Part shown: positions 8,797 through 14,642 of the stretch, piece by piece
How the letters are laid out: every line of letters begins with the position of its first letter
Numbering within the stretch: the first letter of the stretch is position 1
Assembly: GCF_988243305.1 (NCBI RefSeq)
Contig: NZ_OZ547137.1
Source: a plasmid
Length of the DNA stretch: 64,000 nt
Direction: 5' to 3' (one strand)
Made by a program: the position numbers and the translations under genes
Notes under the pieces: generated by a model
What the model was told of the DNA's origin: nothing
What the model saw: only the letters and a program-made list of their open reading frames with translations
Databases searched by the model: none

Positions 8797-8955
8797 GCCT
8801 GTGTCCATATTACGTGGGTAGGATCATATTACCCGATCTCGATGGACGTTATTGAGTGATCTCCTTCCATGAAGCTCGCCACGGGAATATCTGCGGCAGC
8901 GGGCCAGTAATGGGGTAAGTGATAGAGTTAACTCTGTGTTTTATGTGGGGATGAT

Positions 8956-9200
8956 ATGGAATTAAAACAAGACATCGAAAAAGAGATTATAAAATTAATA
9001 ATATCAGAATACATTAGTACACTTTATTATATACATCTAATTGTACAATTGATGTATAACAAAAGAAGGAAGTAAAATATCATTAGAAATGAACTCATAT
9101 TTCTTGAGAGAGACGTTAATATATCAGTAAAGTGCAAGGATATTCAGGAAGGACGTATATCGCAATCAGATTAAACAGCGCTTGATAACTCGTATCAATA
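8956..9200 (+). pseudogene. aggR-like 5-prime gene fragment (AraC/Rns-family paralog remnant)
   Basis: ~80% nucleotide similarity to the first ~230 bp of aggR at 22100; translation MELKQDIEKEIIKL... stops prematurely. Confidence 0.7.
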
Positions 9201-9493
9201 TCTATATGATAGGGTTTTTCAGCACATTATATTCATCAGGATTTTATTTTAAAAGCTAATAAAAGCTATTTTATATTGCTATGACATAACTTCTATGTAG
9301 CCATACTAATGATAAACTCTCTTTTCAGAGAGTTTTAACCCTTCGTTAATATTGCCAGTCAGCAAATCATATTCACCACGATATTGGCGTTATTGTTCAA
9401 CGCCAATATTTATTTTATTATTTCTAAAAATCTCCCTATACATTAGTTAATATAATAGCACTCCCCATTTTCAACTGAAAATTAGCGCATTAC

Positions 9494-10705
9494 TCATATC
9501 TGTGTAAATAAAAAAGGCTCCGTTTTTGACCTATTAAATAAGTCCATATCAATTTTCCAATTCTTGTCTATAAGAACTGTTCCACCATAATTTTGAATAT
9601 TAATAAGAGGGGTATTCGGCGAAACAGAGAATTTCGATAATATGCTTCCATTAATAAGGGTGTTGTCATATTTGTGATTGTCACTCAACCATGAATAATC
9701 GGATTGAACAATGGAGATATCTTTTCTTCGAGATTCACCCTCAGGAAATAATCCCTCATAACATATATGAATACTCATTTTAATGTTGTTGAAATCCAGG
9801 ATGTCCTGCTCATTATATTTCTTTTTATAATATAGAAAAGGTGATGTCGATGGTTCTGGTGAGTTATAAAAACTTTTCTTCTCAAAAAAAGGTATCAATT
9901 TGCTTTTTTGGTGGAGAAGAAACTCTTCTTTATGCCAGAAAGCAGACACTACGTTATTAATGTCTTGATATCCATAAAGATTCATTAATATCCCATATTT
10001 ATAGTGGAATCGATTATCTTTTAATTGCTTTAAGAGATGTTTAGTTCTTTCCTTTATATAATCATTCTTGTAACCGAAAAAAACATTTTCTGAGAGGATA
10101 ACTAGATCAACCTTCTTATTTCTGACGAATTCATTGAGATCAGTATAAAAATTACCTCTGACACCTACTTTTTTAAAATAAAGGCCAACCTGTACAATCA
10201 CAATGTTCAGAGGGGGATGTGTTATATTAACCGGTGTTTTCCATATTAGCGGAAATAATAATAACATAAGAGAACGGAGAAAAAATGATATTTTTAGACT
10301 AAATGTAACTGCAGGAATAAGATTTAATATTAATAAATTTAAAACAGGAATATCTGTTCTTGGTAAGATGTCAGGAAAATCATAATATAAAACAATCAAT
10401 GGATTTAATGGTATAAACATCCCGAAGGCGGATAATGAGGTTAATGAAAGGGCATGTAGACATGCTCCAAGTACCCCATAAGAACTCAGGAAACCATATA
10501 TGACAAGGGTTACCATATTATAGCAGAGTAATCCAAATGAAAGGTATAAATTAGAACTGCCATAATATTCTAAAAAACCACTAGAAAAATACATCCCAGA
10601 GAAAATGATAGAGTATAAAAGAATAGTAAAAAAAAGACTCACTCGTCTTTTTCTTGCTGCGAGATAATAGGCAAAAAAATACAATAAGACAATAGCGAAC
10701 TTCAT
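9494..10705 (-). CDS. aatD: AatD, membrane-anchored Lnt-like N-acyltransferase (CN-hydrolase fold)
   Basis: N-terminal multi-TM region plus a C-terminal domain with an ICYEGLFPE motif like the Lnt active-site Cys; last gene of the aat cluster. Confidence 0.8.
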   Translation of the reverse strand: MKFAIVLLYFFAYYLAARKRRVSLFFTILLYSIIFSGMYFSSGFLEYYGSSNLYLSFGLLCYNMVTLVIYGFLSSYGVLGACLHALSLTSLSAFGMFIPLNPLIVLYYDFPDILPRTDIPVLNLLILNLIPAVTFSLKISFFLRSLMLLLFPLIWKTPVNITHPPLNIVIVQVGLYFKKVGVRGNFYTDLNEFVRNKKVDLVILSENVFFGYKNDYIKERTKHLLKQLKDNRFHYKYGILMNLYGYQDINNVVSAFWHKEEFLLHQKSKLIPFFEKKSFYNSPEPSTSPFLYYKKKYNEQDILDFNNIKMSIHICYEGLFPEGESRRKDISIVQSDYSWLSDNHKYDNTLINGSILSKFSVSPNTPLINIQNYGGTVLIDKNWKIDMDLFNRSKTEPFLFTQI

Positions 10706-12127: not shown

Positions 12128-13295
12128 ATCCAATTTTCTGAAATTCATTTTCTGTTTCATGTAAATTCTCTACACTAGACAAATAAGTGATAACGTCGTC
12201 TTGTCCATTCTTTAAGCGATAATTTATATACTCAACTTTCCTTTTTTTCAGAGTTAGTTCATTTTTCATCATCGCAAGATTTTTCTCTAATCTATCAATT
12301 TTCTGGCGAATTTCTTTTTCCAATAGATCTAGTTTTATATTTTCTTTCAATGATTCATTTCTGGTTCGAGACATAGAAATAATCTTTTCTTTTTGATTTA
12401 CTGAAGAACTAAATAATCCCATTAAAGGAAAGCTGATACCCAGACTAGCACTATAATCCATTTTTCTGAGACTCATATTACCCAATGCACCTCCTTGTTT
12501 AGGTGTTAATCCAAATGATAAATAAAAAGATGGGATCTCAGATAGTTTCCTTATATCATTATCTATATCAGCAGCCTTAATCTTGAGTTTTTTGTTTTCA
12601 GCTAATAATGTATAGAAATCCGCTGTTTTACACTCTTTTAACTTATGATATGTAATGTCTGGGATTGCACTCTCAGGAACATGATATTCTCTCGAGATTT
12701 TATCTGACAGTAAACTTTCCTCCTCCTCAAGGACATCAATATCAAACCTGATTTTTTGTAAAATATTATATATCATCTCTACATCAAGAGCAGATATTAA
12801 TCCAATTGACATTTTACGCTTTGCAATTTCGTATTCTTTATTGAGCTTCCTATATCTCTCGAGCATCAACATCAGGTGAGATTTTTTTATCTTATAGTTA
12901 ATAATTTCCGAGAACAAATTAATTATGTAGTTGTTCCTCTCACTAAGCATTTCAATATATTTTAAATAATTAGCAATATCCAATTTATTATTCTGCATTT
13001 TTGCTTCATAAGCCGATAGAAGATTATAGGATAATGATAAATAAAAATGGCTGTCTGTAATAGATGAGAACCATTGATTGTTGTTTATATACTGCCCTAA
13101 CCCTATATTTATATCTGGTAACATCGTTTTTATATTGTTATGTTTATTAATATCTAACTCTTCGATATCAAGAGAATAAGAATTAAACTGGATGCTTTTC
13201 TGAAAGAAATTATCAATGATACAGTCTTTCGCCAGAGTCTGTGTCGAAAACAGATAAGCATTTATTGCAAGAAATGAGTATAATATGTGTCTCAC
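12057..13295 (-). CDS. aatA: AatA, TolC-like outer membrane channel
   Basis: 412 aa with signal peptide and paired coiled-coil repeats typical of outer membrane factor proteins. Confidence 0.85.
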   Translation of the reverse strand: MRHILYSFLAINAYLFSTQTLAKDCIIDNFFQKSIQFNSYSLDIEELDINKHNNIKTMLPDINIGLGQYINNNQWFSSITDSHFYLSLSYNLLSAYEAKMQNNKLDIANYLKYIEMLSERNNYIINLFSEIINYKIKKSHLMLMLERYRKLNKEYEIAKRKMSIGLISALDVEMIYNILQKIRFDIDVLEEEESLLSDKISREYHVPESAIPDITYHKLKECKTADFYTLLAENKKLKIKAADIDNDIRKLSEIPSFYLSFGLTPKQGGALGNMSLRKMDYSASLGISFPLMGLFSSSVNQKEKIISMSRTRNESLKENIKLDLLEKEIRQKIDRLEKNLAMMKNELTLKKRKVEYINYRLKNGQDDVITYLSSVENLHETENEFQKIGYEIEYYSLYHYFLLQHISNTGKM

Positions 13296-14422
13296 TCGAT
13301 CTTTCCTTTTATCGCATTAACAGGGTTAATGCTGAAAAACAGCCTACTGAAAATGATATTTGCAAATATAAACACCAATAGGACATTGGCAAGTGATATT
13401 GTAATCATTGTTGTCCTAATACTTATTGTTACATCTAAAAAATACTTAATAATATGCATTATTACTCCTGCATGGATGAGTGAAATAAAAAGACATACGC
13501 TCAGCATTATTAATGACTCAATGATAATTAGAACTGTAATCTCTTTCTTTTCTGTACCATGGATTATTTTTAATGCTAACTCTACCCGTCTCGAATAAAA
13601 GCTGCGTTTCGATAAAATAAAACATGTCACGGACGCAGACAGAGTTAATATCACGTATACAGAGTTAGTGAGTAATGAAAACCGCTCTAACACTCTGTCC
13701 ACAGCTTCCTTGGCGTTTAAAGATGTGACAATATCGAATTTTCTTATATCATTGTCATATAAAACTCTCTTTACGTTGTTTATATCTCTCTTTGTTACTA
13801 TGTTATCAAGAAAGATTTTAACAGCATTGACTCTGTTATCGAGTTTCATTTTAAACATAGTTTCCAGTGGAATGAAAATGTGTTCATCTGATTGGTTTGC
13901 TTTCAATCCAAGGCTGTCAAGAAAATCCGTTTTTGAGTTTAATCTGACACCAATAATTTTAAACGGAACACCATTAATAAATATTTGTTTCTTACTGAAA
14001 AACGGACTAGATTCATTAACAATAGCAACATTGCCATTGTACTTATCATTTAAATCTCCAGAATATTCCGTGTTCAATCCCAGCTTGTCAATTCCGCTCA
14101 CCGAAAATAGTTCACCGGAAAAAGGTGTATCGCTGACATAGAGGAATGCGTTCTTCGAGAAAGAAAGAACTTTACTAACCGTAATGAATTTTTCTGTTAT
14201 ATATCCTACCGTTTTAGGTCGATATAATTTAACAAATATTACCTTGTCACTATGAACTTTTAGTTCTTCTTCAGCTTTTAAGGAAACACTGTATATCAAA
14301 GAGTCAGTAATAATTATCCCTATAAAGCTAAGAGATAAAAAAACAAGAAATGCAAAATTCTGTCTTCTATTTTCTATGATATTAAGGAGCGCCTCCTTTA
14401 GATAATAGTGCAAAGTTGTCAT
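13292..14422 (-). CDS. aatP: AatP, ABC transporter permease (MacB/FtsX-like)
   Basis: N-terminal TM, large periplasmic domain, C-terminal three-TM FtsX-like bundle; ATGA overlap with aatA. Start taken at the Met of MTTLHYY. Confidence 0.85.
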   Translation of the reverse strand: MTTLHYYLKEALLNIIENRRQNFAFLVFLSLSFIGIIITDSLIYSVSLKAEEELKVHSDKVIFVKLYRPKTVGYITEKFITVSKVLSFSKNAFLYVSDTPFSGELFSVSGIDKLGLNTEYSGDLNDKYNGNVAIVNESSPFFSKKQIFINGVPFKIIGVRLNSKTDFLDSLGLKANQSDEHIFIPLETMFKMKLDNRVNAVKIFLDNIVTKRDINNVKRVLYDNDIRKFDIVTSLNAKEAVDRVLERFSLLTNSVYVILTLSASVTCFILSKRSFYSRRVELALKIIHGTEKKEITVLIIIESLIMLSVCLFISLIHAGVIMHIIKYFLDVTISIRTTMITISLANVLLVFIFANIIFSRLFFSINPVNAIKGKIE

Positions 14423-14642
14423 GTTGAATGATAACACAAGAATCCTCAGCCACACTTACAGGCGCAGACATGTACAGTTATTGGAAACATTATATATAAT
14501 GTACCTGACTATTAATAACTAAGGGATATATAATTATAAGTTTATGATAATAATCGAAATCTGTGTGACTAAACTTAGTATAAATATATGCACTTAATGC
14601 TGTGGAGCATCCCCTGCACGTTATGCAGAGATATTAATGATT

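Follow-up and report, generated by a model that had tools for sequence, protein, structure and literature searches.

The plasmids of enteroaggregative Escherichia coli (EAEC) that belong to the pAA type carry a system for the acylation and export of dispersin, aatPABCD, which is already known from work published in 2003, 2020, and 2021. The earliest of these publications (Nishi 2003, known through the papers that cite it) concerned the aat system as such. In strain 042, AatD proved to be needed for the modification and export of dispersin (Aap) (Belmont-Monroy et al. 2020, PMC7478709), and liquid chromatography-tandem mass spectrometry in the same strain revealed a palmitoyl group (+238 Da) on the N-terminal Gly22 peptide of Aap solely when aatD was present, together with cleavage between Ala21 and Gly22 (PMC7478709). 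Icke et al. (2021, PMC7943197) showed glycine N-palmitoylation, mapped 826 Aat loci, proposed the name "lipoprotein secretion system" for Aat, and put forward a model in which the substrate passes through Sec and signal peptidase I, is N-palmitoylated on glycine by AatD, is extracted by AatPC, and reaches the cell surface via AatB and AatA. For its part, a review of 2021 compared predicted models of AatD with the apolipoprotein N-acyltransferase Lnt (PMC8689077). Here, we analyzed a 64,000-nucleotide stretch of plasmid DNA (contig NZ_OZ547137.1 of NCBI RefSeq assembly GCF_988243305.1; the whole stretch is called the window below), in which the region 8900-14640 is, with a probability of about 0.95, the aatPABCD operon of an EAEC pAA virulence plasmid, encoding the Aat lipoprotein secretion system with acylation-coupled export of dispersin.

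Open reading frame (ORF) calling in this region gave five packed minus-strand ORFs, aatP, aatA, aatB, aatC, and aatD (14422..9494), of which aatD is the last, in agreement with the five-gene island ending in AatD that had been proposed from the sequence beforehand (the original prediction). Successive genes overlap by 4 nucleotides (nt) (aatP/aatA), 104 nt (aatA/aatB), and 8 nt (aatB/aatC), and an 11-nt gap lies ahead of aatD, so that the genes make up the single compact unit, in the order aatP-A-B-C-D, by which Aat secretion systems are recognized. When 72,556 plasmids were searched with megablast, matches of the aat stretch were confined to Escherichia. Thirty-eight plasmid records were at least 99% identical to it, with genes annotated as aatP/A/B/C/D and "dispersin export", and the best-known match was 55989p (99.9% identity over 5801 nt). 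Given these plasmid matches, the gene annotations, and the identity of the AatD cluster, the window represents a pAA-type virulence plasmid of EAEC.

Three independent lines of evidence, namely a curated model, a deep profile search, and a fold search, establish that AatD is homologous to Lnt. The Lnt model of NCBIfam matched AatD residues 119 to 343 with an E value of 4.4e-8 (32.7 bits). A profile of AatD run against 1.84 billion representative proteins retrieved just 45 of them at E<=0.001, and the weakest full-length matches included three proteins of the size of Lnt (E=3-7e-5), which are genuine Lnt proteins, since they scored 223 to 261 bits on the Lnt model. Finally, an AlphaFold2 model of AatD (mean predicted local distance difference test score, 72.6; predicted TM-score, 0.76) was used as a Foldseek query; the top 11 matches, with E values of 5e-9 to 2.3e-7 and query TM-scores of 0.51 to 0.65, were full-length Lnt structures of E. 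coli and P. aeruginosa, and ranks 13 and 14 were also Lnt entries (E down to 4e-7). Soluble nitrilases paired with the C-terminal domain of AatD only. Lnt is represented by E. coli b0657 and by PDB entries 5N6H/5N6L, 5VRG, 5XHQ, and 6NWR.

For comparison of the catalytic residues, 21 sequences were aligned with MAFFT in a bridged manner: members of the AatD family, intermediates, the E. coli Lnt of NC_000913.3, and the three genuine Lnt proteins. In this alignment, AatD E206, K267, E275, and C315 fell in the columns of Lnt E267, K335, E343, and C387, and the four columns were all invariant, as were the four residues in 14 AatD homologs. The triad named E207/K268/C316 in 042 AatD consists of the same residues with an offset of +1 (PMC7478709). 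Conservation extended to Y316-E317 (Lnt Y388-E389), where F or D were the sole substitutions. Thus, the Glu-Lys-Cys triad, the lack of which had been named in advance as the observation that would speak against the prediction, was present and invariant when AatD was aligned to Lnt. Of the CN-hydrolase domain and ICYE motif originally attributed to AatD, the motif was located at residues 314 to 317 and is the same as that of Lnt (AAICYE), while the domain gave a marginal Pfam match and was recognized through the Lnt model and the Lnt-like fold. Fold and triad together favor the membership of AatD in the nitrilase/CN-hydrolase superfamily.

Several results weigh against this assignment and against a catalytic role of AatD in export. 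The match to Pfam CN_hydrolase (PF00795) reached only an E value of 0.0041 (16.9 bits) and covered part of the domain, and AatD and Lnt resembled each other only very weakly when their sequences were compared directly. A phmmer search of the PDB sequences with the single AatD sequence retrieved no Lnt and just chance matches to chlorophyll-binding proteins, and a 14-sequence AatD profile likewise found no Lnt among the PDB sequences, its matches being chance ones to dCMP hydroxymethylase; the 14-sequence profile hidden Markov model gave E. coli Lnt approximately 0 bits. Both hhalign, with the AatD alignment against single-sequence Lnt (E=0.05), and BLASTP of AatD against E. coli Lnt (E=0.015) paired the Lys and Cys motifs correctly, with values that are unconvincing alone. 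As for the published experiments, the C316A replacement in 042 caused no drastic defect, and palmitate was carried by only approximately 1% of the purified 042 Aap (PMC7478709).

With respect to the Lnt equivalog model (TIGR00546), the 32.7 bits of AatD lie far below the cutoff of 132.9, and AatD is, as its sequence and predicted fold indicate, a Lnt homolog that would work like Lnt, not a Lnt ortholog. The fold and the triad common to both proteins would equally suit a spare Lnt whose role is the N-acylation of ordinary cysteine lipoproteins, with only an indirect link to dispersin export, and Lnt is reported by Belmont-Monroy et al. (PMC7478709) to be able to complement a 042 aatD mutant. 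Such a role is very improbable. Apart from its score below the equivalog cutoff, AatD is devoid of the C-terminal hydrophobic helix found in Lnt residues 477 to 512 and of several other Lnt segments, and Aap has no lipobox cysteine. The AatD family is also tiny, as judged by its 45 representatives, and in the literature AatD always occurs alongside aatPABC and aap/cexE (PMC7943197). Furthermore, AatD-specific acylation was reconstituted in a Lnt-positive strain, in which none was observed without AatD (Icke et al., PMC7943197). The two reports conflict on whether Lnt can replace AatD.

If AatD is the N-acyltransferase of a dedicated export system, its substrate would be Aap. The dispersin gene, predicted to begin at 20909, corresponded to a plus-strand ORF at that position (Table 1). 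Its product starts with MKKIKFVIFSGILGISLNAFA followed by GGSGW; the signal peptide ends in AFA (Ala21), which leaves Gly22 as the mature N terminus (NAFA/GGSGW). Aap therefore has an AXA signal peptidase I site with Gly at +1, and it contains neither the +1 cysteine nor the lipobox that characterize the substrates of Lnt. Cognate substrates of Aat systems have been defined by a signal peptidase I site plus an invariant N-terminal Gly within a Gly/Ser-rich stretch (PMC7943197), and both features are present in Aap. In the substrate CexE, the G20E change abolishes acylation and secretion (PMC7943197).

Regulation of the aat and aap promoters by AggR has been described (PMC6392122). The promoter predicted upstream of aatP is the characterized AggR-dependent aatP promoter of 042, from which it differs by one base in the AggR site, with the same spacing of 21 (PMC6392122 Table 1; sequence match).

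The remaining four genes would supply the exporter. AatC corresponds to an ATP-binding cassette (ABC) ATPase subunit of the LolD/MacB/FtsE kind (NCBIfam LolD, E=2.4e-40; MacB, E=3.1e-37; FtsE, E=5.9e-47), and AatP corresponds to an inner-membrane permease of the MacB/LolC/LolE type, with a Pfam FtsX match (E=3.9e-5) and a weak match to the periplasmic core MacB_PCD (E=0.0038). AatA is a TolC-like outer-membrane channel (Pfam OEP, E=1.9e-4; second repeat, E=0.2), and AatB is a putative periplasmic adaptor with weak similarity to membrane fusion proteins (NCBIfam RND_mfp, E=1.1e-5; Pfam HlyD_D23, E=0.13). By these matches, the exporter is a MacAB-TolC/LolCDE-like machine, made up of an FtsX permease, a separate ATPase, and a TolC-like protein, and not one of the HlyB type, an assignment that agrees with that of Icke et al. 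(2021, PMC7943197). The ABC/TolC-type exporter of the original prediction was right and can be refined to the MacB/LolCDE type.

The GC content of positions 8930-14640 was 31.5%, against 47.0% across the remainder of the window, and no other 5.7-kb stretch within the 64 kb has a lower one. The aat genes are indeed much more AT rich than the backbone, as had been noted, and because of this low GC content the operon is marked as horizontally acquired DNA inside the AggR regulon.

That the island lies between two direct copies of the insertion sequence (IS) IS3 was also correct, copies 1 and 2 being 100% identical, in direct orientation, and placed on either side of the operon; the significance implied by this arrangement was not sustained. 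Excision of each IS3 together with one copy of its duplication yielded the sequence of plasmid p104 (NZ_CP093070.1) base for base, both sites being empty in p104, whereas in 55989p site 2 is empty and site 1 holds an inverted IS3. Because of their separate 3-bp duplications (Table 1) and of the empty sites in the sister plasmid p104, copies 1 and 2 are late, independent insertions in the lineage of the present plasmid, and they are neither the vehicle nor the boundary of the AT-rich module. It is accordingly most unlikely that IS3-aat-IS3 is a composite transposon that brought the island into the plasmid, even though the operon is exactly enclosed by two identical direct copies. The duplications of the two copies are different, as are the outer flanks, whereas a composite transposon would have one duplication shared by its outer ends and none at its inner ends, and many plasmids carry the aat operon in the same context with no IS3. 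A search of 5,426 complete E. coli genomes retrieved no intact junctions: the right-hand junction of copy 1 was absent from all of them, and the search for the left junction of copy 2 was confounded by an IS3-like remnant at 14642-14747, its high-coverage matches being collapsed empty sites that were not counted as the junction elsewhere. In PLSDB, no record contained at least 80% of the 11-kb IS3-aat-IS3 stretch in one place. A composite-transposon origin of the island was thus rejected in view of the target-site duplications and the empty sites.

The remnant itself is 106 bp long and 93% identical to the left end of IS3; it borders the aatP promoter region on its upstream side, at the boundary of GC content, and copy 2 was inserted approximately 50 bp beyond it. 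As to the future of the locus, we regard it as a rather slim prospect that the 8.5-kb IS3-aat-IS3 unit could act as a composite transposon or translocatable unit or, more likely, be lost by recombination between the IS3 copies, giving aat-negative variants. Were such a loss to occur, the variants would be negative with the CVD432 probe and would no longer export dispersin. The three direct IS3 copies in the window allow several recombination deletions, one of which would take aat, aap, and aggR together.

The mechanism considered here is drawn from published work on near-identical or homologous genes, and for the present plasmid the sequence features alone were examined. AggR would activate the aatP and aap promoters. 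Pre-dispersin would pass the inner membrane via Sec, and signal peptidase I would cleave after Ala21 and expose Gly22. AatD, a Lnt-like membrane enzyme with a Glu-Lys-Cys nitrilase triad, would then palmitoylate the alpha-amino group of Gly22, with an acyl chain presumably derived from phospholipid through a thioester on Cys315. The acylated dispersin would be extracted by the MacB/LolCDE-like ABC transporter AatP-AatC, and the adaptor AatB and the TolC-like AatA would convey it to the external side of the outer membrane. We infer both AatD-dependent acylation and Aat-dependent surface export in the present plasmid from near-identity to the homologs of strains 042 and H10407. The secretion of dispersin linked to its acylation, as initially proposed, is supported by the triad alignment, by the published mass spectrometry with and without aatD (PMC7478709), an experiment that had been suggested along with the original prediction, and by the acylation work (PMC7943197). 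That AatD might be a catalytically dead protein with a nitrilase fold, serving the pump only as a structural part or a chaperone, would suit the marginal Pfam similarity and the slight phenotype of the 042 C316A mutant (PMC7478709), but it is extremely improbable in view of the four catalytic positions that are invariant throughout the AatD family and Lnt, of the alanine replacements E217A, K276A, E286A, and C325A at the four catalytic residues of AatD from enterotoxigenic E. coli, each of which abolishes CexE acylation (PMC7943197; the Lys is K276A in the mutagenesis text and K278 in the alignment), and of an acylation that needs no AatPABC (PMC7943197).

The coordinates of the operon and of the associated features are listed in Table 1.

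Table 1. Positions in the window of the aat genes, their promoter, the dispersin and regulator genes, and the IS3 copies
Feature	Coordinates	Strand	Details
aatP	14422..13292	-	376 amino acids (aa), 1131 nt from RefSeq ATG 14422; longest ORF from GTG 14455
aatA	13295..12057	-	412 aa; annotated aatA in 55989p, 100% identity
aatB	12160..11339	-	273 aa; annotated aatB in 55989p
aatC	11346..10717	-	209 aa; RefSeq annotation in 55989p
aatD	10705..9494	-	403 aa; cluster name "dispersin export-associated protein AatD", 100% identity
Predicted AggR-dependent aatP promoter	14535..14498	-	AggR site AATTATATATC (14535..14525), 21-bp spacer, -10 TACATT (14503..14498)
aap (dispersin, substrate)	20909-21259	+	ORF and translation; annotated aap in 55989p
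aggR (AraC-family activator of the aat and aap promoters)	22100-22897	+	ORF; 100% identity in 55989p; AraC-family matches
IS3 copy 1	7569-8826	+	1258 bp; target-site duplication TAT (7566-7568, 8827-8829)
IS3 copy 2	14799-16056	+	1258 bp; target-site duplication AAC (14796-14798, 16057-16059)
IS3 copy 3	46850-48107	+	Identical, same orientation; target-site duplication TCC/TCC

Within the operon, the overlap of the aatA and aatB frames (12057-12160) appears in the ORF call and in RefSeq alike; the internal Met codons M5 and M12 of aatB would cut it to approximately 71 nt, not abolish it. Downstream of aatD, the plus strand contains at 9380-9410 a hairpin with a 12-bp stem followed by a T-rich tail, approximately 85 nt past the aatD stop codon, which resembles a terminator for transcription heading toward aatD from the side of an aggR-like fragment and IS3, not for the aat operon. 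The fragment in question (8943-9170, plus strand; approximately 230 bp) resembles the 5' end of aggR, including the start region; it lies approximately 320 nt downstream of the aatD stop codon and is convergent with aatD. In a pairwise alignment with aggR (22046-22320), mean column identity was 83%, with single-base indels that disrupt the frame, and the fragment is a pseudogene remnant shared with 55989p.

Other features of the window lie apart from the operon. A group II intron reverse transcriptase/maturase ORF was found at 5313-6997 on the minus strand (TIGR04416, 421 bits), with Rfam matches to domains D1 to D4 just upstream and no Rfam match to domain V/VI downstream. An isolated group II intron domain V/VI match (RF00029; 16232-16303, minus strand) was located on the far side of the aat island, within an IS-like orfA fragment. 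Rfam matches to the Hfq-binding small RNA STnc490 (24893-25017, plus strand; 140 bits) and to the ALIL pseudoknot (25916-26014, plus strand; 81 bits) are each probably inside another insertion sequence. An ORF of 249 aa with abundant Gly/Asn repeats (16662-17411, minus strand) resembles a fragment of an autotransporter passenger domain and had no NCBIfam match.

To our knowledge, no bacterial system other than Aat, with its AatD, has been described in which a glycine is N-palmitoylated and the lipoprotein so formed is then secreted. The aatA gene is the classic diagnostic marker of EAEC (the CVD432 probe locus). The new detail provided by the present plasmid is at the strain level only: the late IS3 insertions on either side could destabilize a locus of diagnostic value and virulence.

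Compared with the systems already described, classical type I secretion (HlyBD-TolC) shares with Aat the three-part architecture that spans the envelope and a TolC-like exit duct. However, export of the Aat substrate, which carries a Sec signal peptide, takes two steps, and the ABC component of Aat is not HlyB-like. A closer likeness in components is found with MacAB-TolC and LolCDE (type VII ABC transporters), given the FtsX and MacB core regions of AatP, the LolD/MacB/FtsE-like AatC, the adaptor-like AatB, and the TolC-like AatA, and the substrate is likewise picked up on the periplasmic side. While permease and ATPase are fused in MacB, Aat has AatP and AatC as separate polypeptides, and it has an acyltransferase and a protein substrate of its own.

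As for AatD and Lnt, both consist of a membrane domain and a periplasmic nitrilase-like domain, and they have in common the E-K-C residues plus the second Glu, the ICYE motif, and the full-length fold, with a sequence identity of approximately 14% in the Foldseek comparison. At 403 aa against 512, AatD is 109 residues shorter, and Lnt segments 1-25, 36-42, 73-81, 135-148, and 477-512 have no counterpart in it. The last of these segments holds the C-terminal hydrophobic helix (hydropathy peak at 489-508), a transmembrane helix absent from AatD, whose chain stops with the final beta-strand of its nitrilase-like domain. Conservation does not extend to Lnt W237. The acceptors differ as well, being diacylglyceryl-cysteine for Lnt and, for AatD, the free glycine that signal peptidase I leaves at the N terminus.

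The greatest likeness is to the Aat system of EAEC pAA plasmids (such as 042 pAA2 and 55989p), which the present locus resembles in gene order, gene sizes, sequence, and AggR-dependent promoter. The location of aap more than 1 kb from the aat operon is also the commonest published arrangement. With respect to these known systems, only the context differs, IS3 being present on both sides of the operon in the present plasmid.

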